Below are positions 18,169-62,495 of a stretch of 64,000 nt of DNA, one piece after another. The notes beneath the pieces are model-generated. The model did no database searches. It had not been told where the DNA came from and saw only the letters and a program-made list of their open reading frames with translations. The translations under genes were made by a program, and so were the position numbers. Every line of letters begins with the position of its first letter. The first letter of the stretch is position 1. The DNA is from a virus (Duplodnaviria; Caudoviricetes). The stretch is taken from IMG/VR virus record IMGVR_UViG_3300032275_000001, positions 1 through 64,000 of that record. One strand, given 5' to 3'.

Positions 18169-19127
18169 TTAATTTAATGATTTTCTTTTGTTTTTTTCTA
18201 TTAGTAATATATCTTTCATCTCAAGTATTGAAGTTGTTTGATTTCTTCCCATCTTATCAATCCAATATATTGAGTTTTGTAAATGTGAATCAGTCATATC
18301 CTGAATAAGCACATTATCTCCATCTTTTTTGCACCAAAGCAAATTACCTTTTAGGTATTTTTTTAATAAGCATGTGTAATGAATGTCATTGTAATGATTA
18401 TTATGATGTTCCCATCTTAACTCAGCATCAAGACCTCTCATCATTAAATCATCTGCAAAATCTCCCATACTATCCTAGTGTTAATGATATCTTTCTATGA
18501 AAGAACTTTGTTAATATTCCCTCTAAATTCTCTATTCCTATACATTCCACTTCATCATCTTCTGTAGTGGATAACCATTCAATATTCTCTTTAATCTCTT
18601 CTTCTAGTAGTTCTAATGATTCATCTTTTACTACCATCCAATCATTTATTGCTTTCATAATCCTTTCTCTTTTTTATATATTTCTAATAGTTCTTTTTTA
18701 TCATTATACTTTACTCTATATGGTTGATTTAATAACCACTGACCAAATTCAATAGCAAATTCGTCTGCTACTTGTTCACATTGCTGCACAGGATATGTAT
18801 CTGGATTGTTTACTAATGTTTGGTAAATTTTATCTTCTAATGTCATAAACCTTTTTCTTTTTTATAGATTTCCATTAATGATTGAATTGTACAATACACC
18901 GTAGGCTTTTCCTTACCTACATACTTTGTTATATCAAAATACCTTGATGATGTATTAGCATAGTATGTATTATCTTTATACTTATTAAAGTTAGTATCTT
19001 TCCATTGTGCAAATCCAATAGCAAAGTCATCTGCTACTTGTTCTAACTTACTTGTCCAATATTCAATTGCTTCGTCCATAACAGGTGCAGCAATTATTTC
19101 ACTTTTTAATTTTTCTTTTAGTGTCAT
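18169..19127 (-). CDS. small hypothetical proteins including a tandem paralog pair (18655-18846, 18843-19127)
   Basis: The paralogs share MTL..., EQVADxFAIxFxQW and EIYKKEKGL. Confidence 0.65.
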
Positions 19128-19192
19128 ATTATTTCTCTTTGTGTTAAATATCTCTCAATTGTCTTTAATCCATGTGTTCTGGCAAGATCTGC
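19124..19192 (-). pseudogene. orphaned original 3' end of the primase gene
   Basis: Translates ADLARTHGLKTIERYLTQREII*, which aligns without gaps to the primase tail ADWAKLEGLEVIKLHFIKKRLL*. Its TGA overlaps the next ATG. Confidence 0.75.
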
Positions 19193-19195
19193 TCT

Positions 19196-19672
19196 TTATA
19201 TTAATTTAAGTGCTTCTTGCAATCCAACTTCTAATGCTTCTTCGTAAGTAAAGTATCCACTAAATACATCATTATCTAATGGTCTTAGTCTTGAGATGTC
19301 TTTGATATTATCATGTATAAAAATACAATAACTTTCTTTTCTGAACATCCCATCTCTGTTTATAAAAACATCAATGTTATGAACTTCTCTTAACCATTTT
19401 TGAAGAAGTGATTGAGTTGGTGCAAAATAGTTTTTTTGAACTATAAAATCTTTGTCATCATAAGATTCCAAAAGACCATTAATGTTAGAAGAGTTAGTTC
19501 CTACATTTAAGTTAAGCATTTGTTCCTCTTTTATTACTCTGTAAAAAGAATATCTTTGTACATCATAATTTCTAGAGTCTATTAATGTACTTTTAAAAGA
19601 ATCTTTAAACATTCTAAACCCTTTCTCTTTAGCTAATTTAGCTGTTTCAAATGTTATTAATTGTTCTTCCAT
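19196..19672 (-). CDS. hypothetical protein (FETAKLAKEKGF...APTQSLLQKWLRE type)
   Basis: ORF track. Sits inside the primase tail-swap cassette. Confidence 0.7.
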   Translation of the reverse strand: MEEQLITFETAKLAKEKGFRMFKDSFKSTLIDSRNYDVQRYSFYRVIKEEQMLNLNVGTNSSNINGLLESYDDKDFIVQKNYFAPTQSLLQKWLREVHNIDVFINRDGMFRKESYCIFIHDNIKDISRLRPLDNDVFSGYFTYEEALEVGLQEALKLI

Positions 19673-19677
19673 AATCT

Positions 19678-20325
19678 TTAAATTTTATTGCTTTTGTTTA
19701 AGTTACCTATGTATTCAATACCATTTATTATTTGGGTAACAGCAAATAATGGTTGTAAGTTAGTATAATGAAAACATTTCTTTTGCTCTTCTTCAATTGA
19801 TAAATCAAAAGAAGCACAAGGAATAATATGATCTATATGCCAATACTTACCATAATTCTCCCAAGTCATTGTTGGTAGAAATTTAGATTCAATATAAAGT
19901 TTTAAAAAAGAAACATCACATCCTAAAAGTTTTATACTTTTAGTATTTTTTAAAGCAATATTTCTTTTTAAAGCTGTTCTTATTCGGCTACTAATTATAT
20001 TAGTTAATTTATAATTAATGTCTTCTTTTAACTTATTTTTTCTATATAAGTTTATCTTTACGCTATTTTGTTTTCTATATTTTTTACTTTGATTGCGAAC
20101 TTTTTCAAGATTAGAATAATAATAATTTAAATTATTAGTATTAATTTTCTCTTTATTATTAACAAAATAAAGTTTATTTTGTATTTTTAATTTTTCTTTA
20201 TTTTTTTCTTTCCATATTTTTCTAGTTATTAAGTTATCTTTCTTTCTACAATCCTTACATTTATTTCTATTTTTATCAAAAGAAATAATAGGTTTCTCTA
20301 CATTACAATATTTACAAAACTTCAT
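19678..20325 (-). CDS. HNH-family endonuclease
   Basis: WHIDHIIPCASFDL...CFHYTNLQPL with an N-terminal Zn finger and a basic helical linker. Confidence 0.8.
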   Translation of the reverse strand: MKFCKYCNVEKPIISFDKNRNKCKDCRKKDNLITRKIWKEKNKEKLKIQNKLYFVNNKEKINTNNLNYYYSNLEKVRNQSKKYRKQNSVKINLYRKNKLKEDINYKLTNIISSRIRTALKRNIALKNTKSIKLLGCDVSFLKLYIESKFLPTMTWENYGKYWHIDHIIPCASFDLSIEEEQKKCFHYTNLQPLFAVTQIINGIEYIGNLNKSNKI

Positions 20326-21314
20326 AATAATCTTTTTTTTATAAAATGTAATTTTATTACTTCTAATCCTTCTAGTTTAGCCCAATCTGCAAAATCTTTT
20401 ACTACAGGAAGTAAATCATCAGGAGGATTAATATGTCTAAATCCAAAAGATTCTGTTATATCAAAACTTGCTTTTTTTCCAGGTACATCAGAATCACCTC
20501 CATAAAATACTTCTTTAGAGTTATTTTTAATAAATTCTACAACTTCATCACTTAATGCAGCAGTACTTTCATTTTGAATATGACATACATATGGATAAAC
20601 TTTTTTACACACCATATAATCTTTTAAAGATTTACAAATCAATGTATTTTTGTCTGGTCTTAAATTCTCTAAACCTTTAGCAGTAGTTAATGGTACATTT
20701 GATAGCCACTTACCTCTTTTATTTGTTGTATAGGGAACGTAGATTTTCCAATAGCTTTCATATAGATACGCAAATCTAAGCTCAGTGTCCTTTAGAGGAA
20801 ACTTCTGTTTGTTTAGATATAGTGTGTCTATTGAGTACACATTGTTAGCTCTAAGATCATCTATGTCCTGATAGTATTCATTCCAGTATGCTAGTTCTTC
20901 GTGTGTGAAGTTTCTTGTCTTCATTTGAATAAAGAATTCACGTTTGCTCACTGGTGGTGGTTGCTTATATTCAGAAACAATTCTCTCATATTCTTTTGTA
21001 GAAGAAGAATTGACAATACCAAGATCAAAATCTCTATCTATAATTTTAAGAGCATCGTTGAAAGAACAAGAAAACATTTGCATAACAAAAGCAAAACAAT
21101 TTCCTTTCCATTCATCGCATGAAAAATCTTTATGAGTAAATTTTTGATATTTGTTGCCTATTATAAAAGAAGGATTTTTATCTCCCCTCATCCAGTTACA
21201 CGTAACTACATTTGGTTTAAATTCTCCAAAATACTTTCTGTAAATATCAAAAGTTGATAGTTTTTCAAGAATAGTTTCTGGAGTAAGTACTAATTTTTTT
21301 TTACCTTGTATCAT
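20322..21314 (-). CDS. DNA primase (TOPRIM)
   Basis: RGDKNPSF, KDF...GNCF, ICKSLKD, DSDVPG and KDFAD motifs. Confidence 0.8.
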   Translation of the reverse strand: MIQGKKKLVLTPETILEKLSTFDIYRKYFGEFKPNVVTCNWMRGDKNPSFIIGNKYQKFTHKDFSCDEWKGNCFAFVMQMFSCSFNDALKIIDRDFDLGIVNSSSTKEYERIVSEYKQPPPVSKREFFIQMKTRNFTHEELAYWNEYYQDIDDLRANNVYSIDTLYLNKQKFPLKDTELRFAYLYESYWKIYVPYTTNKRGKWLSNVPLTTAKGLENLRPDKNTLICKSLKDYMVCKKVYPYVCHIQNESTAALSDEVVEFIKNNSKEVFYGGDSDVPGKKASFDITESFGFRHINPPDDLLPVVKDFADWAKLEGLEVIKLHFIKKRLL

Positions 21315-21316
21315 TT

Positions 21317-22090
21317 TTACATATTGTATTTCCAGATAAAACCATGTGCAGATTTTTTATTTCTAGTATTATTTGCACATCTAGTTATTTCACTATGATA
21401 TGTAATTCCTAAAGATTCAGAAGCATTTTTAGCACAACTAAATTCATTTATGAATACGTTATCTAAACTAAACTGATACACTTTCTTTTTTTGAACATCT
21501 GAAATATGATTTTTTTGTTCTTTTGTTAAATTTTTACCTAATCTACTGTTTTTTAAAATTTCTATATTTTTTGGAATTTTTCCTTTTTTAGATTCTGACA
21601 TTTTTTCTTTAGTTTTATTGGAAACAATTTTTCCTTTTGCACTATTTGACATTTTTAATTTAGTTTCTTCAGAATGTTTTTTACCAAAAAAATGATTGTT
21701 TTCTGCAATAGATTTATTTTTTCTACTATTAGAAATTTTAAGTTTAGTTTTATTACTATGTTTTTTTCCTAACATAGGTTTTGTTAAAATACCATTTGGA
21801 TTTGTATTTGCTATATTATAGCCATATATTCTATCATGGACATTTAAAATATTACACCAATAATGTTCCATAGCTATTAATAACTCTTCAGGGTATTCTT
21901 CTAATATTTCTGGACAAAAACTTTCTTTTTTGTAAATTTTATAATCTTCCTGCAAATAGTAATTTCTATGTGTGTTATTTTTTAATTGATACATATGATT
22001 ATATTTTCTAGTGTTAAAATCATTAGTGTATCCTATATAGATACGATTAGTTACCAAGTTTGTTATTGTATAAATTGCTGATATTTTCAT
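21317..22090 (-). CDS. GIY-YIG homing endonuclease with NUMOD3 repeats and NUMOD1
   Basis: AIYTITN...YIGYT...GYN, GKKHSxxTKLKxS repeats, KVYQFSLD...SAHGFIWKY. Confidence 0.92.
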   Translation of the reverse strand: MKISAIYTITNLVTNRIYIGYTNDFNTRKYNHMYQLKNNTHRNYYLQEDYKIYKKESFCPEILEEYPEELLIAMEHYWCNILNVHDRIYGYNIANTNPNGILTKPMLGKKHSNKTKLKISNSRKNKSIAENNHFFGKKHSEETKLKMSNSAKGKIVSNKTKEKMSESKKGKIPKNIEILKNSRLGKNLTKEQKNHISDVQKKKVYQFSLDNVFINEFSCAKNASESLGITYHSEITRCANNTRNKKSAHGFIWKYNM

Positions 22091-22166
22091 AATTTTTAAT
22101 TTTAATACAACAAAGATACAAAATTAATTTGGATTAATATCAATACTAAAAGGATTTTTTAATAAT

Positions 22167-22200
22167 AAAAAACCCTCTCCAAATTAATGAAGAGGGCTTT
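22167..22200 (-). terminator. intrinsic terminator
   Basis: Minus strand GCCCTCTTC...GGAGAGGGT followed by a T run. Confidence 0.7.
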
Positions 22201-22217
22201 TATTAACAACAAACGAA

Positions 22218-23096
22218 TTAATAATCATCACCATCTTCACTAATAAATGCATCAGAAGCAACTAAGTTATCATCTGCATTATAATCTTGTAAGTCTTTGA
22301 GGATGTAATAGTCTTTACAACCATATTCTCCAATAACATTCATTACAAACTTCTCATGTGCTTTTAAGTCACGAGGTTTCTTATTCTTAAGATCACTCTG
22401 CACTCTCTTGCTTCCATAATCAACAAGTCTGAATTGTTTAAGAGCATAACCTCCTAAGAAAGCTTTGTTATAGATTCCTTGATACTCTTTAGATTCACCA
22501 TCACGTTCTTTGACAATAACAGTAGCAAGAGCTGCAACAGATTTAGCCCACTCACCATCAATTTGGTCCTTAAGATCTTTTACATTACCTCTCATCAACT
22601 TCTTCCATTCTAATTGTAGAACAGTGTCTGCATCACGATAATCAAGATCAGCTAACCATGTACGCATGAAGTTATAAAAATCTTCTTCTCCTGTATATGC
22701 AATTCTATAATCTCTTCCTTTGGTAAACCATTCAGCTAGATCATTCTCATCACCTGCCCAAGAACACATACCAATAGAATTGATATATTGATTCTTAGTA
22801 CCATCTTTATTCTCTCTCTCCTTATCTTCTAAGAAGAAGCTCACTTTCATTGGTTGTAATGTTGCATCTTTAACATCTTTCAACCATACATCGATTCTAA
22901 GATAGGTATTACCATCTTTAGTTTCTCCTAAATACTCAGCAGCTTTACTATCTTCTTTAAGCTCTATACCAAGCTTATCTTTATATTCTTCGATTGTTGG
23001 ATTGATAGCAACCACGTTTGCTTCAAACAATCCCACTCTTTTTACTGAATCACCACTTCCTGTGTTTTCTCTTTTCTTTCCTCCGATACTACTCAT
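22218..23096 (-). CDS. conserved replication-module protein (possible SSB)
   Basis: VVAINPT motif and acidic C-terminus. Lies next to the AAA ATPase, as in crAss-like replication modules. Confidence 0.5.
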   Translation of the reverse strand: MSSIGGKKRENTGSGDSVKRVGLFEANVVAINPTIEEYKDKLGIELKEDSKAAEYLGETKDGNTYLRIDVWLKDVKDATLQPMKVSFFLEDKERENKDGTKNQYINSIGMCSWAGDENDLAEWFTKGRDYRIAYTGEEDFYNFMRTWLADLDYRDADTVLQLEWKKLMRGNVKDLKDQIDGEWAKSVAALATVIVKERDGESKEYQGIYNKAFLGGYALKQFRLVDYGSKRVQSDLKNKKPRDLKAHEKFVMNVIGEYGCKDYYILKDLQDYNADDNLVASDAFISEDGDDY

Positions 23097-23113
23097 AATT
23101 TCTATTTATTTAT

Positions 23114-23788
23114 TTAAGCGTTATAATAATTTTTTAAACTGTCTGCTACTAATTGCAGGTTATTTGGTATTTTAAGTTCTGGGAACATTCCATCAGGACT
23201 TTTAGCTGGTATCTTTCTATGACGATTAGTTATTAACTGATAGTTAGTTGTACCATCTTTGTTCTCTTCTACATTAGTGTATAGACAAACAGTCAATAGA
23301 CCTTCCAATAACACTTGATTATCGATAAGTTTCCCAGCAGTCTTAATTTTATATCCTATGATATCTTGTCCATCCATCACTTCTTCTGGATGTGTTAGAT
23401 AGAATACAGTGATATCATCTCTTAACTGTCTAGCAGTTCTAAATAGATCTACCATGTCTTTAGCCATAACACTAAATTTGGTAAATCCTGTCTCTGTAGC
23501 TTTACTCACCATATTAAATCCCATAATGTAATTAGAGTCTTCAATGATGATGTTCTTAACATGTGGAGCTTTCTCTGAAATAGTTTTTAGCAATCGAGAT
23601 ATCTCGTTAGCATCATCTACTTCTTTGTAATTCTTCTTTTCTACATTGTAAAGTTTCTCACTTCCTTTGAATGGAAGCTCTTTCTTTGCAACATTAATAA
23701 TGTACGTTTCCTCTGGATCTAGGTGCTTGATACTGGTTGACTTCCCAGTTCCTGTGCTTCCCACAATCCCTACTAGCTTTGAACTCAT
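23114..23788 (-). CDS. AAA ATPase (Sak4-like)
   Basis: GSTGTGKST, IIIEDS, KIKTAGKL and AKSPDGMF. Confidence 0.8.
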   Translation of the reverse strand: MSSKLVGIVGSTGTGKSTSIKHLDPEETYIINVAKKELPFKGSEKLYNVEKKNYKEVDDANEISRLLKTISEKAPHVKNIIIEDSNYIMGFNMVSKATETGFTKFSVMAKDMVDLFRTARQLRDDITVFYLTHPEEVMDGQDIIGYKIKTAGKLIDNQVLLEGLLTVCLYTNVEENKDGTTNYQLITNRHRKIPAKSPDGMFPELKIPNNLQLVADSLKNYYNA

Positions 23789-23850
23789 GTGTTTTTAATT
23801 TATTTAGTTATTTATTTTAATTTTATAAAGATACAAAATAATCTTTTTAA

Positions 23851-29309: not shown

Positions 29310-29346
29310 AATTTAGTTTTTAGGGTTACAAAGATAATAAAAAATA

Positions 29347-33485: not shown

Positions 33486-33613
33486 GATTGTTGAGGTTGG
33501 AACTTTCTTCTCTTAAGTACTCAACACCTTTTTTGTGTAAAAAGGACTTAACATTCGTGGTATGCAAACTACCCAATGTCTGTTACTGTGCTATTTGCGT
33601 CAAGTAACTGCTG

Positions 33614-34029
33614 TGGACTCGGAGGGATTCGAACCCTCGTGTTGCTTACTTCAAAAATACAATTTTATACAGCTTTACGTTTCTTTAAACTCTTTACGTT
33701 AGAAAGGTCAACTAATTAAAGAAGACTCCACCAGAGAGTTTTTTACGTATACTCACAAACTTCTATGGCAAATGTTATAGTCTGTAGCCAGTGTGTGACT
33801 TAATCTCCTAATTCTTAGGTTTAGGCAGCCTCAACTAATTCTCCGAATATAACATCAGATTTAACTTCAGTTCCACCATTTAAGATGTTATGAACTACAG
33901 TCATGTTAGCTTGTACTTGGGCATTCTCTTGTTGTTTGTCATTTAAAATGATTCACCTTAGTTTTATACAGTTATCTCTCTGTGCTGAATTGTATAATCT
34001 ATAATAACCAGTCAATTCCATTCGAGCCC
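33614..34029 (-). ncRNA. ssrA: tmRNA
   Basis: 5' GGGCUCGAAUGGAAUUGAC and 3' GAGGGUUCGAAUCCCUCCGAGUCCA. 7-bp acceptor stem with G3.U70, T-arm, and an internal tag ORF ending GCU GCC UAA. CCA is not encoded. Confidence 0.92.
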
Positions 34030-34333: not shown

Positions 34334-34365
34334 TTTGTTCCTTTGAGAAACATTTATTATATTTG
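34334..34365 (+). promoter_or_regulatory. Bacteroidetes-type sigma70 promoter
   Basis: TTTG (34334-34337), 20-bp spacer, TATATTTG (34358-34365). Confidence 0.65.
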
Positions 34366-34872
34366 TATATGACTAAAGAAATCCTTAAACAAATGTTAGA
34401 TGATGGTTTAAATACTCAACAAATGGCTGAGATATTAAACTGTACAAGAAGAACTATAAGTAATGCTATTAATAGAAATAACTTAGAGTCTCCACGTAAT
34501 AAAAGTATTAGATTAAATGTTAAGCACTGTGCTGGATGTAAAAAAACATTAGACAGAAGCTTATTTTATACTAAATCTAATAAAAATAGTAGTTTATGTA
34601 AAAGTTGTATTGTTACAAACAATAAAACTAGTAGACAAACTGTAAAGCAACAATGTATAGAATACTTAGGTGGATGTTGTTCTAAATGTGGTTACAATAA
34701 ATGTAACGCTGCTTTAGAGTTTCATCATTTAGATCCAAGCCAAAAAGATAAAAATTATACTAATAATAGATTTTTAAATTTTGAAAAACTTAAACCTGAG
34801 TTAGATAAGTGTGTCCTTCTGTGTGCAAATTGCCATAGAGAAGAACATCACTCATCAACTACTGACATCTAA
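34363..34872 (+). CDS. HTH + HNH endonuclease, antisense to its neighbours
   Basis: CCSKCGYNKC..ALEFHHLDP...ELDKCVLLCANCHREEH with an N-terminal HTH. Likely ATG at 34369. Confidence 0.9.
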   Translation: MYMTKEILKQMLDDGLNTQQMAEILNCTRRTISNAINRNNLESPRNKSIRLNVKHCAGCKKTLDRSLFYTKSNKNSSLCKSCIVTNNKTSRQTVKQQCIEYLGGCCSKCGYNKCNAALEFHHLDPSQKDKNYTNNRFLNFEKLKPELDKCVLLCANCHREEHHSSTTDI

Positions 34873-43790: not shown

Positions 43791-44336
43791 ATGGCAGAAC
43801 ATAAATACAAAAATAAAGAATATAAGTCCAGAATAAACGGAAAACATACTATTCAATATAATGCTTGGAAAGCTATGTATCAAAGATGTAATGATAGTAA
43901 TTTACATTTAAAACATCCTTCATACAAAGATTGTTATATTTGTGATGAATGGTTAGATTTTCAAATCTTTGCAAAATGGTTTGATGAAAATTATATTGAA
44001 GGTTACCAATTAGATAAAGATTTATTAACTACTGGAAATAAATTATATTCACCAGCAACTTGTTGTTTTATCCCACAAGAAATAAATCTTTCTATTATAA
44101 AACCTCATACATCTAGAAATTTACCTTTAGGTGTGTATAAACACCATTATAAATTTGTAACACATATAAAAGAAAATAAAGTTAGTAAATATATAGGTAT
44201 TTTTAATTCAATTGAAAAAGCTTCTGATTGTTATATTAAAGAAAAACAAAAACAATTAAAAAAGTTGGCACAAAAATATAAAGATACTATTACATTAGAA
44301 ACTTATAACTCTTTATTAAACTATATAGTAAATTAA
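43791..44336 (+). CDS. free-standing HNH-like endonuclease with AP2-like C-terminus
   Basis: YNAWKAMYQRC...CDEWLDFQIFAKWF...LDKDLL..GNKLYSPATCCFIP, then LPLGV...YIGIF. Confidence 0.8.
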   Translation: MAEHKYKNKEYKSRINGKHTIQYNAWKAMYQRCNDSNLHLKHPSYKDCYICDEWLDFQIFAKWFDENYIEGYQLDKDLLTTGNKLYSPATCCFIPQEINLSIIKPHTSRNLPLGVYKHHYKFVTHIKENKVSKYIGIFNSIEKASDCYIKEKQKQLKKLAQKYKDTITLETYNSLLNYIVN

Positions 44337-44338
44337 TT

Positions 44339-46924
44339 ATGATAATTAGATACACAAAAGACGCTACCATACGGTATGCCTACTTAAACATCTTTCCTGA
44401 TCAGTTCAAGACAGAGAAGGAGAAACAAGATGAGAGCTGGATTAAGAACACCATGGATTATTTTTCCAACAAGGCTTATGCTGAATACATAAAGAATAGA
44501 GATACGTTTGTAAAAAACTATGATCTTATGAAGGGGATTCTGCGTATGGAAGATTTCTATCAGGAACCAGAGGTGAGAAGCTTTACAGATGTACTTACAG
44601 CAGATCTAGAACTTCCAGCTTATGTAAAACATTATTCTATTGTAACAACACCTATTAATGAGTTAGTAGGAGAGATATCAAAAAGACCTGATACATTCAG
44701 AGTGAAAGCTTTTGATGATGATAGTAAAGCAGAAGAACTTCAGTTCAAAACCGATACATTACAAGAATATGTAATCAATCAAGTGAAGCAACAACTAACT
44801 GCAAAAGCTGCAATGCAAGGAGAAGAAATTGATCCTGAGCAACTAGATCAGATGACTATGGAACAAGTTAAAGATCAACTTGATAGTTATACATCCATAG
44901 CTGAGAAGTGGGCTAACCATGTTCTTACATGTCAGAAAGCTGAATTCAATCTTAAAGAAAAGAGTGAGGATGCATTTAGAGATATGTTAATATCTGCTAG
45001 AGAGTTCTATCATATATATGAAGACAACTCTAAGTTAGGATTTAACATAGAGGTGGCTAATCCAAAAAATACTTGGTATCTATCTACACCAGATAGAAAA
45101 TATATATCAGATCCAACAGGTAGAGCACAAGGTGCATATGCTGCTGGTACTGTGACAGTTATGGAACTATCTGAGATTATTGAATCTGTTCCTGATCTTA
45201 CTAAAGAAGAAATAGATCACCTCAGATCATCATTACAAGATTATGGACTAATCAATGTACGTGAATCTAATCTTGGTAATCCTAATGCTCCAGAAGGTAT
45301 TGACTCTGTAAACTATGATACATTTGACCCTCTTGTATTACAAACAAGAATGATGATAGAGAGTGAGATGAAGGAGAACAATGATGGACTTAAAGATTTC
45401 TTAGGTCTTACTAATAATGTAAGTTCATTTGGATATAAATATGTTGTTGTAAGAAGCTATTGGATATCTAAAAAGAAAATAGGTAAGTTGATTTATATAG
45501 ATGAAATGGGTAACGAGCAATCAATGCTTGTTGATGAATCGTATAAATCAGGAACTATTCCGACACAAGAATCATTAGAATGGGGATGGATTAACCAATG
45601 GTACCAAGGAACTAAGATTGGTCCAGACATTTATCACATTAAACCATTTAAGTTATTAAACTACTGTCCTATCATAGGCATTGTGCATGAGGTGAAGAAT
45701 ACAGAGGCTAAATCTCTTGTTGATCTCATGAAGCCTTTCCAAGTAATATATAATGTATGTATGAACCAACTTTACAAACTACTTGAGAAAGAAGTTGGTA
45801 AGGTGCAGCTTATGTCATTAAGACACATTCCTATTCCTAAAGATGGAGATGCACAAGATGCCTTAGACATATGGGAAATGGAAGCACGTAATAGAGGAGT
45901 GGTATTTATTGATGATAGTCCAGAGAACATGAAGAGCCCTAGCTCATTCAATCAATTTACAGCTCTTGACCTTACACGTACACAGGAGATACAATCTAGA
46001 TATAATCTTGCTATGCAGATTAAACAAGAGTGTTGGGAACTTGTAGGTATGTCTAAACAACGTATGGGATCTGTTTCTGCTTCTGAATCAGCTACAGGTA
46101 CAAACACTGCTATGCAACAGAGTTATTCTCAAACAGAGCCTCTATTCGTGGCTCATGAATATGTAATGGGTCAATTGTATCAGAGTATTATAGATGCTGC
46201 TTTATATGTAGAATCATCTAAACCACAATCCACTCTATCATATATTACATCTGAAGGAGAATCTGCATTTGTACAAGTGAATGGAACAGATCTTAGATTT
46301 AGAGATTTGAAAGTGTTCCTTACTAACAGACCAGAAGATACACAAATGTTTAATGAGCTTAGACAATTGTCTCAAGCTATTATACAGAATGGTGGCACAC
46401 TTTATGATGTTGTTGAACTATACAGTTCTAAATCACAAAGAGATCTTAAGAAAACATTCAAAGATCTTAGAGATAGACAAATTGCACAGCAAGAACAAGC
46501 TCAGCAATTACAACAGCAACAACAACAAGCTCAAGAGCAACAAGCTCAAGCTCAACAACAGTTTGCTATACAACAACATCAAGAACAACTTGCTCATGAT
46601 GATTATCAAAAAGAACTTGATAGACTATCTAAAGAAAAGATTGCCATCATTGCTGCTACTGGATATGGTAATATTGAGAGTGAAGATGTTAATGCTAATG
46701 CTATTCCTGATGTAATGGAGATGAGTAGATTAGCTCATGACCAAGAGAAAGCTTCTAAAGACTATGGATTAAAAATGGCTGATATTCAATCTAAGAATAA
46801 ACAAGCTAGTGATAAAATGTCTATAGAAAAAGAAAAATTAGCAGTGCAAAGAGAGAATATGGCAAATGATGAAAAAATAGCAAAGATAAATGCAAGCAAT
46901 AGAGCAAATAAAACAAAGAAATAA
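44339..46924 (+). CDS. portal protein
   Basis: 861 aa after terL. HYSIVTTPINELVGE, SLVDLMKPFQ..YN, ELVGMSKQRMG and a Q-rich coiled coil. Confidence 0.85.
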   Translation: MIIRYTKDATIRYAYLNIFPDQFKTEKEKQDESWIKNTMDYFSNKAYAEYIKNRDTFVKNYDLMKGILRMEDFYQEPEVRSFTDVLTADLELPAYVKHYSIVTTPINELVGEISKRPDTFRVKAFDDDSKAEELQFKTDTLQEYVINQVKQQLTAKAAMQGEEIDPEQLDQMTMEQVKDQLDSYTSIAEKWANHVLTCQKAEFNLKEKSEDAFRDMLISAREFYHIYEDNSKLGFNIEVANPKNTWYLSTPDRKYISDPTGRAQGAYAAGTVTVMELSEIIESVPDLTKEEIDHLRSSLQDYGLINVRESNLGNPNAPEGIDSVNYDTFDPLVLQTRMMIESEMKENNDGLKDFLGLTNNVSSFGYKYVVVRSYWISKKKIGKLIYIDEMGNEQSMLVDESYKSGTIPTQESLEWGWINQWYQGTKIGPDIYHIKPFKLLNYCPIIGIVHEVKNTEAKSLVDLMKPFQVIYNVCMNQLYKLLEKEVGKVQLMSLRHIPIPKDGDAQDALDIWEMEARNRGVVFIDDSPENMKSPSSFNQFTALDLTRTQEIQSRYNLAMQIKQECWELVGMSKQRMGSVSASESATGTNTAMQQSYSQTEPLFVAHEYVMGQLYQSIIDAALYVESSKPQSTLSYITSEGESAFVQVNGTDLRFRDLKVFLTNRPEDTQMFNELRQLSQAIIQNGGTLYDVVELYSSKSQRDLKKTFKDLRDRQIAQQEQAQQLQQQQQQAQEQQAQAQQQFAIQQHQEQLAHDDYQKELDRLSKEKIAIIAATGYGNIESEDVNANAIPDVMEMSRLAHDQEKASKDYGLKMADIQSKNKQASDKMSIEKEKLAVQRENMANDEKIAKINASNRANKTKK

Positions 46925-47627
46925 AAAAGGTTTAATTTATAAAATAAACTTAAGTGATAAATTTATTATAGGAAGTACTATAAATTATAAAGAAAGAGTA
47001 TATCACCATAAGTATTGTTTAATAAATAATAAACATTGTAATAAACCATTACAGTCATTATATAATAAATTAGATAATAAAAATATTAGCTTTGAAATAT
47101 TACAAGAAGATATTCCAGAAATTATTTTACAATATGTAGAGGATATTTGGATAGGTGCAAGTTGTAGTAAAATACAAGATAAAAAACAAGGTTTAAATAT
47201 AATAGACGGTTCTAGGATTTCTTATACAAAAGAAATGATAGAACATAAAAGAATTATACAAACTGAAAAAATGAAAAATCTTTCAGTAGAAGATAAAAAA
47301 CAAATATATATAAAAGGACAACTTACTAAAAAAGTAAAAATTATAGAAATAGGAGAAAATATATCAAAAGGTAGAAAAAATAATGCAAAGTTTAACTGGG
47401 ATAATAATCAAACAAAACCTGTTACTCAGTTAACAAAAGATGACATAGTTATCAATACATGGTCTTCTGCTTATCAAGTGCAAAAAGAATTAGGTTTTAG
47501 TTCTTCTAAAATCAGTGCTGTTTGTAGAAATAAATATAATTTAAAAACACATAATAACTATAAATGGAGATTCTCTACAATAGAAGAAATAGAAAATGCT
47601 AAAGGACGTAATAACAAAAAAGGTTAA
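46890..47627 (+). CDS. GIY-YIG-like endonuclease with NUMOD1, fused to a portal-like tail
   Basis: GLIYKI...FIIGST..R...H, KPVTQLTKD...WSS...ISAVC...YKWRF, ending ENAKGRNNKKG. Confidence 0.8.
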   Translation: MQAIEQIKQRNKKGLIYKINLSDKFIIGSTINYKERVYHHKYCLINNKHCNKPLQSLYNKLDNKNISFEILQEDIPEIILQYVEDIWIGASCSKIQDKKQGLNIIDGSRISYTKEMIEHKRIIQTEKMKNLSVEDKKQIYIKGQLTKKVKIIEIGENISKGRKNNAKFNWDNNQTKPVTQLTKDDIVINTWSSAYQVQKELGFSSSKISAVCRNKYNLKTHNNYKWRFSTIEEIENAKGRNNKKG

Positions 47628-49033: not shown

Positions 49034-49062
49034 CAAATTAATAATTAATAAATTCAAATAAA

Positions 49063-50790: not shown

Positions 50791-50861
50791 GGCGGTTTAG
50801 TGTAATTGGTAGCATATCGGGCTCATAACCCAATGGCCAGGTTCGAGTCCTGAATCCGCAA
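50791..50861 (+). tRNA. tRNA-Met(CAT), initiator-like, degenerate
   Basis: Cloverleaf with CTCATAA loop, GGG/CCC in the anticodon stem, GGTTCGAGTCC T-arm and a 1:72 mismatch. Additional stem mismatches; CCA not encoded. Confidence 0.7.
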
Positions 50862-50896
50862 CTAAAATAAACCAAATAAATTAAATTAACTACATT

Positions 50897-54475: not shown

Positions 54476-54477
54476 TC

Positions 54478-54567: not shown

Positions 54568-54572
54568 TAAAT

Positions 54573-56108: not shown

Positions 56109-56120
56109 AATAAATATAAT

Positions 56121-57287
56121 ATGTCCAATTGTCAAAATTGTTTTAATGGATGCACCGAAACTATTTCAGATCAGTGTGTCAAATATACAGGAATAAATGT
56201 TCCTGAATTAGGAATTAGCACTGGTGATCCTTTATCAGTAATTGAACAATCTCTAACAACATTCCTTGTTTCTGCATTAAATGGAACAGGAATAAAAATA
56301 GATCTAAGTGGTATAGATATATGTACATTAGTACAACAATATCTTCCTACATGTGGAGAAATGTCAATAGCAGATATATCAAAAGCTCTTGTGCAAGCTG
56401 TATGTAATATACAAGAACAAATAGATGCTATTGTAGCAGAACTTGCTATATTAAATGCTGATTATACAATTGACTGTTTGACAGAAGTTACAGCTTCTTC
56501 TGATACACATGCTATTGTACAAGCAGTTATAACAAAACTTTGTACTATTGATACTAACTTAACAGAATTAATTACAGAAGTAGATAATCAATATGTTAAA
56601 AAAACTGAACTTTGCAGTTTAGTTACAGAGTGCATGAGTGGAGAAAGTGGCACAGATTTAGCTAGTGCAAAAATGCTTCCTTATAGTATCATTCCTTATT
56701 ATGGACCAGCATCTGGATATCCAACAGTTAGTGATGGATTTAGTTCAACAGGTGCAGGATATGGATATTGGCTTAATGTATATTTATGTAATGGAGGAAA
56801 TCCAGGTGTTCCAGATTTGAGAGGAAGAGTAGCTGTAGGTGCTACAGATATGGCAACAGCAACATGGCCTATGAGTGGACAAACACAACCAGGTGTTAAT
56901 AATAATCCTACATATGAATACAAAGATCCAGCTACAGGAATACAAGGAAGTAATTTTACTACATTAACATTAGCACAGATACCAGCACATAATCATACTA
57001 CTTCTACAGCTAGTTCTACAGCTATTACCACTATTCCCCCACATACTCATTCTATATTAGGAATAACAGGTGGAGATAATAGTGATAATAATAATACTGT
57101 AAGATTTGCTGGTGGAGATAAAAATCAAACAGAACCAGGTTTCTTTTTTACAAATATACAAGCTTGTCAATCTGCAACTTTATCTGCTACAACAACATTA
57201 ACAATATTACCACAAGGACAAGGTGAGAAACATTCAAATGTTCAACCAGGACTTGCAGTTTATTATCTTATCTATATCCCAGCATAA
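56121..57287 (+). CDS. tail fibre/collar-domain protein
   Basis: LCNG...PDLRGRVAVG...TLTLAQIPAHNH...HSNVQP (tail-collar motif). Confidence 0.75.
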   Translation: MSNCQNCFNGCTETISDQCVKYTGINVPELGISTGDPLSVIEQSLTTFLVSALNGTGIKIDLSGIDICTLVQQYLPTCGEMSIADISKALVQAVCNIQEQIDAIVAELAILNADYTIDCLTEVTASSDTHAIVQAVITKLCTIDTNLTELITEVDNQYVKKTELCSLVTECMSGESGTDLASAKMLPYSIIPYYGPASGYPTVSDGFSSTGAGYGYWLNVYLCNGGNPGVPDLRGRVAVGATDMATATWPMSGQTQPGVNNNPTYEYKDPATGIQGSNFTTLTLAQIPAHNHTTSTASSTAITTIPPHTHSILGITGGDNSDNNNTVRFAGGDKNQTEPGFFFTNIQACQSATLSATTTLTILPQGQGEKHSNVQPGLAVYYLIYIPA

Positions 57288-57293
57288 TAATAT

Positions 57294-58298
57294 ATGTCTT
57301 ACCCACCTACTCCACAAAGAAAAGCTTGCAACTGTAGTGATCCTTGTATCTCTACAGATGATGTTTACTATGCTGGTCCCAATCTTCCAAACTTAGGAGT
57401 TAATACAAATGACTTACTTACAGAAGTTATAGAGAAGCTAGATGCTATATATGCTGTTCCTACATTACAGAGAGTTACAGAGATGGATAATCTTACCACT
57501 TTACCAATAATTGCAGATTCATTTGTAAAGATTGGCGGAGATGGAACTAATATTTTATTGGATGATGGTACAGTATTACCTATAGGTGATTTACCTTCAC
57601 CTACAACTCCTCTATCTTTACAACAAGTATTAGATGAAAATAATCAAGCCTTAAATCAAAATATATTATTAGAATATAATGATGGGGTTAATGTAGTTGC
57701 TAGTACTCAAGTATATCCTGGAAATATAAATATAATATCTAATGAATCAGGTTTATATTTAGGTACAGTAGGATACAGTAGTGGATTAAATAATTATGAG
57801 TTAGGGGCTATACATTTTAGTTCATCTATTAATAGTCAATCTTATTCAAAAACAGTATTATATGAGAATCCAGAATCTGTTGCTAGTAATCCAAGTGAAT
57901 CTTTATTATTAAGACTACCAAAACATATTGGTTCAGAAACAAAAACACTAGCTACACTAGATGATATACCTGCAAGATTATATAAAGTGTACACAGCTTT
58001 GTTATCACAAACTGGACAAGAAGTTCCTGAACCTACAGTATTAGAAAATACATTAGGAGGAATAGTTGTTTGGACTAGAGACAGTGCTGGTAATTATATA
58101 GGAACTTTAAATGGTGCGTTTCCTGCAGGTAAAACCGTATGCTTTTATACACATGATGGTTTAAATGGTTCTACAGGATATGGCGGTTTATTAAGAAAGG
58201 ATTCTAACAGTGTATGGATGACTTTTAATAATGGCACTGGTATCTATATAGATTCAGAAGGGCAATCAGATTCAATAGAAATAAGAGTATATAATTAA
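57294..58298 (+). CDS. tail fibre-like protein
   Basis: TLQRVT and SLQQVLD repeats; C-terminal YKVYTALLSQ...IEIRVY domain. Confidence 0.55.
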   Translation: MSYPPTPQRKACNCSDPCISTDDVYYAGPNLPNLGVNTNDLLTEVIEKLDAIYAVPTLQRVTEMDNLTTLPIIADSFVKIGGDGTNILLDDGTVLPIGDLPSPTTPLSLQQVLDENNQALNQNILLEYNDGVNVVASTQVYPGNINIISNESGLYLGTVGYSSGLNNYELGAIHFSSSINSQSYSKTVLYENPESVASNPSESLLLRLPKHIGSETKTLATLDDIPARLYKVYTALLSQTGQEVPEPTVLENTLGGIVVWTRDSAGNYIGTLNGAFPAGKTVCFYTHDGLNGSTGYGGLLRKDSNSVWMTFNNGTGIYIDSEGQSDSIEIRVYN

Positions 58299-58319
58299 TA
58301 TAATAAAAACCAAATAATT

Positions 58320-58934
58320 ATGACAGTAATAATAACATTAACAACAGCAGGTGCAGATACAGGACCATTCAATCTATTTTCAGATGCAAATGAATATACA
58401 ATAGCATTTGCTATAGGAGTAACTAAAGCAGAATTAGAAGCAGGTTATCCATCTGATTTAGTTCCTGATGGTACAACAACAATTAAAGTACAATCTGTTA
58501 ATAGTTTATGTAATAATTTTGCAGATTTACCTACAGGTATAACTACAACAACCTCTACTACATTACCTCCAATTAACTCTGTAGAATAGCTTACTGGTGA
58601 TTATCCTCCTATTGCTTATGGTATTTCTCCTGGAGATATAATTAGCTTAAGTGGGACTGTTGAAATAATAGGGGACCCTGTTACTTTTAGAGCTTACGCA
58701 TTTTTACCTACAGGACCTGGTGATGGTGCTGTAGATACTAGCATAAGTATAGGTAATATTGATGTGGAAATAACAAGTAGATATGTAGATGCTGTAACAC
58801 CATATGATAATGGCATAAATCAATACTCTACTTCATTCACCCTTCCAGCAGGAATATATGATTGGAATGTACTTTGTACATTCTCTAATACAGCATCTAT
58901 AGGAGGAGAAGGTGGCATAGATTGGGTACAATAA
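58320..58934 (+). CDS. virion protein interrupted by an in-frame TAG at 58587-58589 (89 aa, or 204 aa with readthrough)
   Basis: The frame stays open for 114 codons after the TAG, with no ATG, to TAA at 58932-58934. N-terminus is paralogous to 58952. Confidence 0.7.
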
Positions 58935-58951
58935 TATAAAAATAAAACCAA

Positions 58952-60151
58952 ATGACAGTACTATTAACATTAACAACTGCTGGATCTGATACAGGTTCAT
59001 TTGATCTATATTCTAATTTAGATTATGCTATTCCTTTTGAAACAGGAGTTGGTAAAGCTACATTAGAAGCAGGGTATTCAACAGAGGTTCCAGATGGTGC
59101 AACTATTGTTAGAATTACATCTACAGGAGATTGTATTAATTCTGTAGATATAACATTAAGATTAGCTGAATGTGATTTAGATGGATATGTAGAACAATTA
59201 ACCACTACAACAACAACAACTATATGTATTCCCCAAACAATATATGCTGGAGAAACATATTATAAATCAGGAAATACAGCACTAGAGTCTGGATTAAGAG
59301 TAAATAATTATGCTTCTTTTTATCCTAATGGAACTAAAGTATTTTTTACACAACATAATAATGGTTTAGCAGGAGGAAATCCTACAGGTATATATGATCC
59401 AATTATATCATATGATTTAGCAACTCCATGGGATGTATCCTCTATCATTAAAACTGGAGAGTTACAGTCTTCTAATTCGCCTAATCAATGGTTTAGTACT
59501 CCAGCAGTTACGTCAAACTTAACAACATCTTATGGATCACCACTTGAAAACTTTACAGCAGGGCATACCTTTTCAGAAGATGGTACTAAATTATTTACAG
59601 CTGGAAAAGATAAAGGATTGCTACAAAAATATACTTTAGGTACTGCTTGGGATATTACTACAATGATTTTTGATTCTTCTACATTAGAATATGTAGTAAT
59701 TACAGGAGATAGTTTAACAGCAGTTAAATTTAGTAGTGATGGTTTAATTATGATATTGCTTGGAAATAGTATTACAGCAAGATATGAATTAGTTTCTCCT
59801 TGGGACATAATTGGTGCAACATTGATATTTACTTCTACTGGTAATTCTAGTGATATTGATTTTCAAAATGGTGGTTTATATTTATTTACATTTAGTGGAT
59901 CTAATTTAGTTAGAAAAACTTTAGGAAGTCCATATGATATAACAACTATAATTGAAACTCAAACACTAATTACTACAGTAATTCCTCAAGCAATATCTCC
60001 AAGAATAGTATTTAAAGATGGATTTAAAGGATACATAAGTACATTTAATAGTTTAGAACCTAGTATAATTTCTGCATTTGAGTTAACATGTGAGTTTGAT
60101 ATTAGTGGTACTATTCCAACAACAACTACTACTACAACATTACTACTATAA
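58952..60151 (+). CDS. virion protein with beta-propeller-like repeats
   Basis: Repeats YDLATPWD, YTLGTAWD, YELVSPWD and TLGSPYD between poly-Thr tracts. Confidence 0.65.
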   Translation: MTVLLTLTTAGSDTGSFDLYSNLDYAIPFETGVGKATLEAGYSTEVPDGATIVRITSTGDCINSVDITLRLAECDLDGYVEQLTTTTTTTICIPQTIYAGETYYKSGNTALESGLRVNNYASFYPNGTKVFFTQHNNGLAGGNPTGIYDPIISYDLATPWDVSSIIKTGELQSSNSPNQWFSTPAVTSNLTTSYGSPLENFTAGHTFSEDGTKLFTAGKDKGLLQKYTLGTAWDITTMIFDSSTLEYVVITGDSLTAVKFSSDGLIMILLGNSITARYELVSPWDIIGATLIFTSTGNSSDIDFQNGGLYLFTFSGSNLVRKTLGSPYDITTIIETQTLITTVIPQAISPRIVFKDGFKGYISTFNSLEPSIISAFELTCEFDISGTIPTTTTTTTLLL

Positions 60152-60319
60152 AAAATCTGAGTTTGTTGGTTTTCTTAGATTTCCTCTCAATATATTCTTG
60201 GGAGGTTTTTGGTTTATAACCTTTTTGATTATAAAGAATAACATATTTGGTTAAATTTATTTGGATAGTATGAAAAGTATTTTTATCTTTACCCTAATTT
60301 TAAGTAAACTAAACTAAAT

Positions 60320-61543
60320 ATGATTGAGAATCAAGATTTATTATTCAAGTTAGAAGAGTTGTTAAAGCAAAAGAAAAGTAAAAAGTTCTATGCAGAGAGA
60401 TTAGGGATAAGTGAAAATGAAGTGAATGAACTTTTAAAAGAACTTAGAGAGAAAGATGATTTACCAATTGAACTATCTCCTAGTTATAAAGAAGAATTAC
60501 GTAAGGTGAATGTTGAGAAGGGTACAATAGAAAGCACTATCACTAGTGACTTTGATCCAAAGGATGATATTGAATTAGCAGCATTGCACAAAATAAATTT
60601 AGACAAATACATCATTACCAACTACTGGTCTAAGATGTTACCAAGTGGAAACTTTACATCTTCCATCTTTAGTAAAAGAAAAGAAGCACAAGACTACACC
60701 CCTGAAGACTTTGCTAAGTTTTTAGAAAACTACAAACCAAACAATATAACTGTTGTTAAACCAAAAACTAATCTCACTAAAGAACATGTAGATGTAGAGA
60801 TATCTATTTCTGATTTCCATTTAGCTAAGAAACATGTAGATGGAGATAATGATCCTGGAAGTAGAGCACTCAGATATTTCAATGTAGCACAATCTTTGAT
60901 ACATAAGGTGAGAGCTAATTACAATATAGACACTGTTATCCTTCCTATATCGAATGATTTCTTCCACACCGATAACTACCAACATCAAACTACAAATGGT
61001 ACCCCACAGGACACTATAATAGATTATGCAGATGAATATGAATTAGGCTTTGCAGTTCTTGTAGATACAATCAATATGTTGAGACAGAATGCAAATGATG
61101 TAAAGGTGGTACTTGTACAAGGTAATCATGACAGAACTAAATCATTCTACTTAGCACATGCACTAGATGTGTATTTCAAAGACTACTTTGATGTAGATTT
61201 TGATAGAGCACACACTACAATAAAAGGACTTACTATTGGTAATACATTCATAGGATGGCACCATGGTAATTGCAAAATAGATGATCTTCCTTTATTATTT
61301 GCAACACATCCTCAATATAGCCAAGCATTTGGTAATGCTAAATATAGAGAAGTTCATACAGGTGATAAACATCACTATATGGCTAAAGAACTTAAAGGAG
61401 TAAGAATACAACAAATGCCTAGCTTATCTGGAACAGATAGATGGCACCTAGATAATAATTTTGTCCACTCAGTTAGAGCTGCATTAGCTCTTGTATATGA
61501 CCCAATTGTAGGGAAGATCTGTGAGTTCGAAGAAAGAATATAA
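60320..61543 (+). CDS. HTH + calcineurin-like metallophosphoesterase
   Basis: SDFH, NDFFHTD, GNHD, HHG and TGDKHH. Confidence 0.85.
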   Translation: MIENQDLLFKLEELLKQKKSKKFYAERLGISENEVNELLKELREKDDLPIELSPSYKEELRKVNVEKGTIESTITSDFDPKDDIELAALHKINLDKYIITNYWSKMLPSGNFTSSIFSKRKEAQDYTPEDFAKFLENYKPNNITVVKPKTNLTKEHVDVEISISDFHLAKKHVDGDNDPGSRALRYFNVAQSLIHKVRANYNIDTVILPISNDFFHTDNYQHQTTNGTPQDTIIDYADEYELGFAVLVDTINMLRQNANDVKVVLVQGNHDRTKSFYLAHALDVYFKDYFDVDFDRAHTTIKGLTIGNTFIGWHHGNCKIDDLPLLFATHPQYSQAFGNAKYREVHTGDKHHYMAKELKGVRIQQMPSLSGTDRWHLDNNFVHSVRAALALVYDPIVGKICEFEERI

Positions 61544-61546
61544 ATT

Positions 61547-62275
61547 ATGGCAACATTAAGAAAATTAGTATCAGATGTTAGAAGTGTCCACAAGATACTT
61601 TCTACAGATTCACTTATAACAGATCGTGCAATTGCATCTGAAATAAGAAACAACTCTTTATTATTAATCAAAAGAGAAACAAATCTTAGAAAGCTTTGGG
61701 CTACTGATACATTGTTTACTACTATTCCTTGTTTGGAGATGATAGAGGTATCTATTTCTGAATGTTGTAACTATGTAGATCCTTGTTCTATAGCTAGAAC
61801 TAAATTTAAACTCCCACGTATATCTGAAGGAAACTATCAATATGTTATACAAGGAGTTTATTCTATTAATGCAATGAGTGGAAAAGGAAGAAAGCTAAAA
61901 GAAATTACAGTTAATAGATATATTAATCTATTAAAACTTCCTGTAATTAAAAAAGAAGAATACTTCTGGATATCTAATGGATATTTATATGTAAGTAATC
62001 CACTTCTTAAAGCAATTAGATTTGTAGCTTTCTTTGAAGAAGATGTAGATAATGAAATCATGTATCCAGAATGTGGATGTGGTGCTCCTGAATACACAGT
62101 GGAACAATTATGTCAAAATCCTTTAGACAAAGAGTTTCCTCTTCCTGGATACTTAGAACAACAAGTCCTTGAGTTAACATCTAAAAAACTACTATCTACT
62201 TATTTTAGCATACCTCAAGATTTGTCAGTAAATGGTATTGATGGACAAGATCCAAAATCTCCTAATATAAGATAG
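61547..62275 (+). CDS. ring/adaptor-like virion protein
   Basis: crAss-like position; YFWISNGYLY motif; C-terminus duplicated downstream. Confidence 0.6.
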   Translation: MATLRKLVSDVRSVHKILSTDSLITDRAIASEIRNNSLLLIKRETNLRKLWATDTLFTTIPCLEMIEVSISECCNYVDPCSIARTKFKLPRISEGNYQYVIQGVYSINAMSGKGRKLKEITVNRYINLLKLPVIKKEEYFWISNGYLYVSNPLLKAIRFVAFFEEDVDNEIMYPECGCGAPEYTVEQLCQNPLDKEFPLPGYLEQQVLELTSKKLLSTYFSIPQDLSVNGIDGQDPKSPNIR

Positions 62276-62276
62276 T

Positions 62277-62495
62277 ATGCAAAATAATCATTTTATTAAA
62301 GAGTGGGAATCTCTTAGAGACATACATTCTACATTATATATAAATAAAAATTTTAAAAATTTTAAAAAATATATACTTAATGTAATATCTGGAAAAAGAA
62401 AATCTGCATTTTCTTTTAATTGGAAATATATTAAGACAGACATAAGTCAAGAAGGGATAGATGGACAAGCTCCAAATTCAAAATCAACTAATTAA
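62277..62495 (+). pseudogene. NUMOD1 remnant of a HEG fused to the displaced tail of the upstream gene
   Basis: FIKEWESL...NVISGKRKSAFSFNWKY (NUMOD1) followed by IKTDISQEGIDGQAPNSKSTN. Confidence 0.7.

Follow-up and report, generated by a model that had tools for sequence, protein, structure and literature searches.

In T4-like phages, free-standing GIY-YIG and HNH endonucleases of the seg and mob type, which account for "intronless homing", are encoded outside introns and occur sporadically among close relatives; according to passages of a review on them, they are read from upstream host promoters and co-convert flanking markers (PMC2988022). In the homing endonuclease gene (HEG) islands of Barth et al. 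(2023), excerpts of the paper describe endonuclease genes that cluster by essential genes and mark recombination borders, the core genes between two endonuclease genes moving as cargo (PMC10448857). In fungal mitochondria, excerpts of another paper describe a complete atp6 or cob gene followed by often degenerate GIY-YIG or LAGLIDADG open reading frames (ORFs) and then by a duplicated C-terminal segment (PMC6279837). Here we analyze a stretch of 64,000 nucleotides (nt), referred to as the window, from the crAss-like phage record IMGVR_UViG_3300032275_000001 of IMG/VR, in which the genes for the DNA primase, the portal protein and tail ring protein 2 are each followed by a cassette and by a second version of their own 3' end. 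From comparison with relatives, these cassettes are very probably free-standing HEG elements that are lodged in the final 11 to 23 codons of core genes and supply their own 3' gene end.

The window comprises the first 64 kilobases (kb) of a single contig of 109,994 bases. It has a G+C content of ~30%, its genes switch from the minus to the plus strand at ~39 kb, and it is rich in endonuclease-like ORFs, of which there are ~10. Its proteins match crAss-type families, i.e., tail ring protein 2 (PF25702), P22-like portal (phrog_6547) and DnaG-type primase (phrog_12622). The three loci have a common order, that is, a core gene with one tail, a cassette, and a second homologous tail placed directly before the next gene or its spacer. 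The features are the following (lengths in amino acids, aa):

21317..22090, minus strand: free-standing GIY-YIG/NUMOD3/NUMOD1 endonuclease gene (Pfam), in the spacer upstream of the primase
20322..21314, minus strand: DNA primase, ending in DFADWAKLEGLEVIKLHFIKKRLL and a stop codon (Pfam Zn_ribbon_DnaG, phrog_12622)
20322..20739, minus strand: replaced primase 3' segment of 139 codons, including the new tail DFADWAKLEGLEVIKLHFIKKRLL, delimited by nucleotide and protein segment comparison
19678..20325, minus strand: HNH-like endonuclease ORF, 215 aa, its start overlapping the primase stop in ATGA
19196..19672, minus strand: cargo ORF, 158 aa (phrog_12005, E 7.9e-26)
19124..19195, minus strand: stranded ancestral primase tail RADLARTHGLKTIERYLTQREII, 23 codons plus TGA, following the stop codon of the 158-aa ORF without a change of frame
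18843-19127, minus strand: next gene, its ATG overlapped by the TGA of the stranded tail
44339..46924, plus strand: portal protein, 861 aa, ending in NDEKIAKINASNRANKTKK and a stop codon (P22_portal, phrog_6547, E 2e-100)
46870-46924, plus strand: new portal tail, its left junction versus L122 lying after 46869
46890..47627, plus strand: GIY-YIG-like endonuclease ORF, 245 aa, starting inside the new portal tail in another frame and ending in EEIENAKGRNNKKG and a stop codon
47592..47627, plus strand: stranded ancestral portal tail ENAKGRNNKKG with its stop codon, fused in frame to the endonuclease ORF and followed by the ancestral 143-nt spacer
61547..62275, plus strand: tail ring protein 2, 242 aa, ending in SIPQDLSVNGIDGQDPKSPNIR and a stop codon (PF25702, E 2.3e-18)
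62206-62275, plus strand: new ring tail, the flanks being ~99% identical to L042 up to 62205
62277..62429, plus strand: first 51 codons of a 72-aa ORF, probably what remains of a DNA-binding domain from an endonuclease (weak match)
62430..62495, plus strand: stranded ancestral ring tail IKTDISQEGIDGQAPNSKSTN with its stop codon, the in-frame end of the 72-aa ORF (62277-62495)

At all three loci the cassette ORF starts by overlapping the host stop codon or one base past it. A previous inspection of these letters without database searches, hereafter the sequence-only reading, had reported a gene tail, a cassette and a second tail at each locus, the second tail being in frame with the last cassette ORF, and stop/start coupling to the next gene at two of them. 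This observation is real at the three loci: the parts lie where they had been placed, the frame is kept at each, and the coupling is found as ATGA at 19124-19127 (primase) and as TAATG at 62493-62497 (ring).

From similarity within the genome alone, two of these three pairs of tails would not have been convincing. When each ORF tail of the 109,994-base genome was compared with its own downstream DNA by local score, the ring pair alone was clearly above background (score 48), the other scores similar to or above this value corresponding to T-rich low-complexity stretches or tandem paralogues. The primase pair scored 35, which is noise level (dozens of tails scored at least 32), the portal pair was not recovered, and this genome-wide scan found no convincing additional tail swap. 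Since the primase pair lies at noise level and the portal pair was missed, the proof rests on the relatives of this phage and not on similarity within the window.

Among named phage records there are only distant kin, whose protein identities of 23 to 31% make them too distant for judging tails, and a nucleotide search of the phage record collection with the window gave short matches only or none. IMG/VR contains hundreds of close relatives, in contigs of up to ~119 kb, and their loci are cited here by L-numbers (L001, L042, etc.). We have compared the best 80 of 580 candidates for the ring gene, the best 80 of 360 for the portal gene, and 41 loci for the primase gene. The relatives without cassette had been expected to end in the stranded tail, and this is the type found in 80 of the 80 ring loci (79 of them empty), in 78 of the 80 portal loci and in 31 of the 41 primase loci. 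Rather than ending in the upstream tails or resembling the stranded ones at chance level, the best matches are identical to the stranded tails over 21, 11 and 22 residues for ring, portal and primase, respectively. Because relatives end in the downstream tails, the stranded tails are the ancestral gene ends. At the nucleotide level, the identity between new and old tails is ~62 to 64%. The host protein had been claimed to stay intact, as is indeed borne out by the length of the host ORFs: the ring protein has 242 aa in either form, the portal protein has gained one residue, and the primase has 330 aa vs 331 to 337 aa in seven aligned relatives. Thus, a gene followed by one or more endonuclease or endonuclease-derived ORFs and by a homologous C-terminal fragment, with the downstream copy being the ancestral one, is found at the three loci.

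At the ring locus, the stranded tail is identical in 21 of 21 residues to the C-terminus of the ring protein in L042 and L043, and its stop codon shares bases with the start codon of the next gene (TAATG, 62493-62497). In 79 of the 80 relatives the next gene lies within -1 to +9 nt of the ring stop codon, mostly with this same overlap. In comparison with L042, whose flanks are ~99% identical, 4 nt have been exchanged for 224 nt (62206-62429), of which 70 nt belong to the new tail and 153 nt to the remnant ORF. The 51-residue part of this ORF has no Pfam or PHROG match; in a set of 13 sequences it weakly matches (E 0.001) residues 140-180 of a GIY-YIG-like gene found at the same locus in L085. 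In that relative, an intact GIY-YIG-like ORF (4729-5493) separates the ring gene from its downstream neighbour and the tail is not duplicated, which implies that the ring site can also be occupied in a plain spacer mode.

At the portal locus, the relatives of the ancestral type (78 of 80) end in AKENAKGRNNKKG or similar (NDLAVAKENAKGRNNKKG), matching the last 11 residues of the GIY-YIG-like ORF of the window. Their spacer to the next gene mostly measures 135 to 151 nt, commonly 143 nt, and the window retains 143 nt. In comparison with L122, ~21 nt have been exchanged for ~725 nt, the flanks being ~95% identical up to the junctions, and the right junction and the spacer align with both L122 and L125. 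Residues 16-228 of the 245-aa ORF are homologous to the Pfam-confirmed GIY-YIG/NUMOD3/NUMOD1 gene at 21317-22090 (BLASTP E 4e-13), and residues 229-245 correspond to a linker plus the old portal tail. The host-like sequence transferred together with the cassette is, at the portal as at the ring, the new tail only.

The intact nuclease ORF of the window was found in none of the 80 portal relatives, and an IMG/VR search for the intact gene gave two partial relatives only. Three relatives carry reduced versions of the element. L301, in a different portal background, has between the new tail and the old one a nuclease ORF reduced to 57 codons by an in-frame internal deletion; L143 keeps the swapped portal tail, and only the start of the nuclease ORF plus the old tail remain of the rest; in L156 only the new portal tail remains. 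They show a progressive deletion series of the portal nuclease gene in which the swapped tail is retained throughout, and the ring remnant fits the same path of decay. In addition, L189, which belongs to another portal lineage, carries after its portal gene an HNH-like ORF that ends in AIDYLKGRNKKSK, i.e., in the native portal tail of its close relative L190. The L189 portal has its own substitute tail, its junction lies ~three codons from that of the window, and the TAATG coupling to the next gene is kept. The portal tail thus appears to have been invaded twice, within ~three codons, by two different endonuclease families.

The primase is a three-part mosaic whose outer segments travel with the adjacent endonuclease genes. 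Residues 1-85 are 98% identical to those of L002, which shares the upstream GIY-YIG gene, and ~45% identical to those of the others; residues 86-191, the backbone, are 88 to 92% identical to L008, L012, L007 and L014; and residues 192-307 are 96% identical to the cassette-bearing L001 vs ~45% to the cassette-free relatives. These identities indicate that the downstream cassette brought 139 codons (residues 192-330) and the upstream endonuclease gene another 85, so that co-conversion is seen on both sides of the primase. At the nucleotide level, similarity to cassette-free relatives is restricted within the primase gene to 21059-20740 and reappears from 19192 to 19124, the break at 20739/20740 being common to most loci. 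The 22 aligned residues of the stranded tail are identical to the primase C-terminus in nine loci (L008-L012, L014-L016 and L019), with nucleotide identities of 96 to 99%, and in L022 the old primase tail overlaps the homologue of the next gene of the window by 4 nt. The GIY-YIG gene at 21317..22090 is tied to the replaced 5' segment of the primase (~21060-21314), no duplication having been seen there; L002 carries this upstream gene at 93% identity together with the old primase tail and has no downstream cassette.

Within the primase cassette, the 215-aa ORF matches phrog_1035 ("endonuclease VII", E 1.8e-6) and phrog_2340 (E 2.9e-5), its Atlas neighbours, taken as a lead only, include phage HNH and I-HmuI_NUMOD-like clusters, and it contains H-x-D-H...N-L-Q, which we take to be an HNH-type motif. 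Its comparison with the Pfam-confirmed Endonuclease_7 ORF of an intron of the window described below was not significant (BLASTP E 0.094). Homologues with 47 to 56% identity lie directly after the primase in L003, L004 and L024. The cassette of L001 follows a primase tail of the window type and contains a GIY-YIG-like ORF replacing the HNH-like one, a homologue of the 158-aa ORF (34% identity) in the same position, directly ahead of the stranded tail, and the stranded tail itself (83% identical). In L006, a short ORF is followed by a stranded HGLKTVEEVLKEKGII with its stop codon. As a separate observation, the genes at 18655-18846 and 18843-19127 (minus strand) are tandem paralogues with the common ending EIYKKEKGL, L001 has a similar pair, and the gene content of the replication module around 18655-19127 varies among relatives.

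Taken together, the alleles of these genes are found empty, occupied and decayed; their junctions can be placed exactly, and the length of the host ORF is kept. Five apparently separate events can be counted: the primase element shared by the window and L001, the one in L006, the portal GIY-YIG element, the portal HNH element of L189, and the ring element. In each of the five, the duplication directly adjoins an endonuclease-like ORF or a remnant of one, and the old tail shares the reading frame of the last cassette ORF, for which a simple calculation gives a chance of (1/3)^5, ~0.004, if the events are independent. This suggests that the in-frame fusion has been kept so that translation ends at the ancestral stop codon, preserving the coupling to the next gene.

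The interpretation given in the sequence-only reading is essentially supported, with some corrections. At the primase, 139 codons have been exchanged rather than 22. The attribution to HNH and GIY-YIG/NUMOD1 cassettes holds by homology at the portal, relies on PHROG matches at the primase, and concerns at the ring a probable 51-residue nuclease-gene remnant only. The tails had been described as recoded, and they look instead like natural alleles of diverged relatives, as shown for the primase. That cassettes can carry cargo genes agrees with the recurrence of the 158-aa ORF in L001 beside a different endonuclease gene; that the device is used recurrently agrees with the further instances in L189, L001 and L006; and that no splicing is involved agrees with the stop codons in the cassettes and with the lack of a group I intron signal in them.

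We propose that such an element would have three parts. The first would be a substitute tail with its stop codon, homologous to the original one, diverged from it, and probably derived from the same gene of a diverged relative, as shown for the primase. The second would be the endonuclease ORF, sometimes with a cargo ORF, set tight against the host gene, and the third would be the displaced original tail with the original stop codon and the original spacer or coupling to the next gene. During co-infection, the nuclease would cut the empty allele near the 3' end of the gene, and repair would copy the new tail, the nuclease gene and the cargo between homologous flanks, one being the gene body and the second the old tail together with the next gene. 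Occupied alleles would be immune to cutting because the site has been split and its left half replaced. As to the origin, it is likely that, in one lineage, an endonuclease gene was located just past the stop codon and its product cleaved a diverged allele, in which case repair may have found homology on the gene-body side only, the other end being joined at the break and the tail of the recipient being left stranded. Later, the nuclease gene would decay or be deleted, and the swapped tail would persist as a lasting change of the allele.

Several observations weigh against this proposal. The ring and portal relatives are the top-scoring ones and, thus, a non-random sample. The ring cassette is now without a nuclease gene, and its assignment as a decayed nuclease-gene remnant is probable, resting on a weak match; an IMG/VR search with the remnant ORF matched only the ordinary ring tail in all 80 kept loci, and a degenerate DNA pattern for the new ring tail gave 0 matches in IMG/VR. 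The 215-aa HNH-like ORF had no match in Pfam, NCBIfam or PDB sequence searches. In L020, L036 and L037, primase tails with the DFADW motif are not accompanied by a cassette, and in L003 and L004 the HNH-like gene is present and a stranded tail is undetectable, so that part of the primase pattern could be ordinary allele mosaicism. Finally, a 181-aa ORF (43791-44336, plus strand) is a plain spacer insertion without duplication, and the existence of endonuclease-like spacer insertions of this kind in the same genome makes tail replacement one outcome among several. This ORF exactly fills the interval from the terminase stop codon to the portal start codon and has a weak DUF6161 match only; it is absent in 70 of 70 relatives, 66 of which have only 2 to 4 nt there, and the terminase tail is unchanged.

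The cassette-free DFADW tails and the ring locus without a nuclease gene, together with the highly mosaic primase region of many relatives and their common break at 20739/20740, are what would be expected if illegitimate or short-homology recombination of the ordinary phage kind had swapped the gene ends, the endonuclease genes being passengers at module borders. Such a passenger role would have to accommodate that five of five separate duplications directly adjoin an endonuclease-like ORF or remnant, that two endonuclease families have reached the portal tail within ~three codons, and that the same portal element occurs in two different portal backgrounds. Moreover, flanks that are ~99% (ring, L042) and ~95% (portal, L122) identical up to the junctions fit site-specific insertion better, and we regard ordinary mosaicism as an unlikely account of the tails.

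It is still much less probable that two coexisting strain variants were joined in tandem during metagenome assembly. The genome is probably metagenome-assembled, a 10-kb test stretch having been found in public metagenome runs (sediment, hydrothermal-vent and freshwater), and no conclusion is drawn from that list of runs. Analogous arrangements, however, are present in the independent contigs L001, L006, L189, L143 and L301, the inserts hold unique ORFs in flanks that are collinear with those of relatives, and the tails, being 62 to 64% identical, share short identical runs at most and offer no long repeat that could mislead an assembler.

The least credible explanation is that the inserts are self-splicing introns or inteins and that the mature product uses the downstream tail: the window does hold two group I introns with endonuclease genes in other genes, but a stop codon closes each host ORF in frame ahead of the insert, which excludes inteins, and splicing is not needed, given that each upstream tail is a homologue of its downstream counterpart. 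ORFs take up almost the whole length of the cassettes, the portal insert of ~725 nt being nearly all one ORF, and neither it nor the ring insert of 224 nt leaves room for a ribozyme core. The Rfam results call for care. Runs on the whole window (at the gathering threshold, and with E up to 1) found no intron, whereas runs on small regions with lax filters did; since the whole-window runs missed introns through a failure of the filter, the negative result for the 64 kb is no evidence that introns are absent and it has not been used. The lax-filter runs on small regions, which detected Intron_gpI in two other split genes of the window as positive controls, gave no Intron_gpI hit in the three cassettes.

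The first of these control genes is a uracil-DNA glycosylase gene (15652-17228, minus strand) split by an 851-nt element (16111-16961) that contains an Endonuclease_7-type HNH ORF (16309-16950, Pfam E 1.4e-17) and a group I intron detected at 16165-16430 with 74.3 bits (E 8e-19) in the small-region search only. This gene is contiguous in 32 of 34 relatives, and the element is common to L015 and L016. The second is a GHKL-type ATPase-like gene (11040-14349, minus strand), interrupted after ELGMMG and contiguous in L035, whose second part (LGFKAPLAY...) is without its own start codon. Its insert (~12912-13974) carries a 260-aa ORF (13101-13883) and a sub-threshold group I intron of 31.6 bits (E 5.8e-6) at 12987-13108. 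At the same site, L037 has an ORF that looks by eye like a LAGLIDADG one. A single genome therefore uses introns where an insertion lies in mid-gene, simple insertion into a spacer at another site, and replaced tails close to the ends of genes.

Other endonuclease genes lie beyond the window, among large tail genes. A GIY-YIG gene at genome positions 70076-70708 (L284 6076-6708) is 34% identical to the gene at 21317-22090, and in the 16 relatives compared the gene upstream of it has the same tail whether the GIY-YIG gene is present or not. An HNH-like gene at 72739-73425 (L284 8739-9425) is located in a region that is too mosaic to be read in the 16 relatives; the N-terminal 23 residues of the 1210-aa protein encoded downstream match only L298, the sole relative that shares the HNH-like gene. 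Within the window, some further ORFs look endonuclease-like by eye (1234-1794, 8336-9217 and 34363-34872; NUMOD4/HNH_3-like beside a RecA-like gene, two HNH/Endonuclease VII-like, one HNH-like). The window also contains a gene resembling that of transfer-messenger RNA (tmRNA) at 33611-34029 (minus strand), predicted by ARAGORN with the tag peptide GGTEVKSDVIFGELVEAA and a stop codon, for which the Rfam tmRNA score of 32.6 bits is under the gathering score of 47, and a gene for tRNA-Met (CAT) at 50791-50862 (plus strand) amid structural genes.

If tail replacement by HEG elements is correct, a selfish nuclease gene can reside within the 3' coding end of an essential phage gene and needs neither an intron or intein nor a split of that gene, which would be of interest for mobile elements and phage evolution. 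It would explain abrupt changes of the C-terminus in portal, ring and primase proteins among otherwise near-identical phages. Should tail replacement moreover be a general strategy of HEGs, which is somewhat less likely than not, three consequences would follow. The in-frame fusion to the old tail would have been selected, keeping the termination-reinitiation coupling (ATGA, TAATG). The start of the stranded tail would mark the point of nuclease cleavage in the empty allele, so that the junctions give concrete predictions of cleavage sites and genome sequences would suffice for reading off the targets. With each invasion, the C-terminus of a core virion or replication protein would be altered for good, and the elements would drive the diversification of tails in widespread environmental crAss-like phages; in fact, the relatives come from many metagenomes, and hence this behaviour belongs to a widespread phage group and not to one genome. 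For annotation, pipelines would call the stranded tails, or odd C-terminal extensions, as part of endonuclease ORFs.

Concerning the systems already described, a literature search found no phage description of the replacement-tail arrangement; supplements and most subscription journals were outside this search, and an earlier description may exist. The elements of the window resemble the seg and mob genes of T4-like phages in their endonuclease families, their sporadic presence and the co-conversion of flanks, which the phage primase mosaic fits, as far as passages of the review describe it (PMC2988022). In those passages the T4 cases sit in spacers or split a gene into two polypeptides, and the text of the review has no wording on duplication (PMC2988022), whereas the elements of the window lie inside the coding 3' end, supply a substitute tail and leave the old one downstream. 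As in HEG islands, the primase of the window stands between a GIY-YIG and an HNH-like gene and is a three-part mosaic; unlike in them, 23 codons of the displaced primase end survive, the island passages describing no replacement or stranded 3' ends (PMC10448857).

The architectural match of the window loci is given by the partial C-terminal duplications of fungal mitochondrial atp6 and cob, as described in excerpts of the fungal paper (PMC6279837). The fungal cases belong to organelle genomes with slow turnover, whereas those of the phage occur in a lytic-type population that contains empty, occupied and decayed alleles side by side; the tails of 11 to 23 codons, the translational coupling kept by the old tail, and the two endonuclease families on the portal tail are also unlike the fungal cases. 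Fungal cases of a similar kind are described for atp6 of Allomyces and rps3 in Ophiostoma. HEG-bearing group I introns carry the same selfish nuclease and face the same problem of sitting in coding sequence; here no ribozyme was detected by the small-region Rfam runs on the cassettes, and the carried tail, instead of exon ligation, would complete the host protein. The genes-in-pieces, such as the nrdA of phage Aeh1 split by mobE, share with the window loci a free-standing endonuclease gene within a coding region and the lack of an intron, according to the review passages (PMC2988022). They give two polypeptides that must reassemble, whereas the window loci keep one full-length protein and the displaced piece is discarded. 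As a tentative generalization, of which we are less than half convinced, tail replacement may be a third general strategy by which HEGs live in essential phage genes, the other two being introns or inteins and the splitting of genes.

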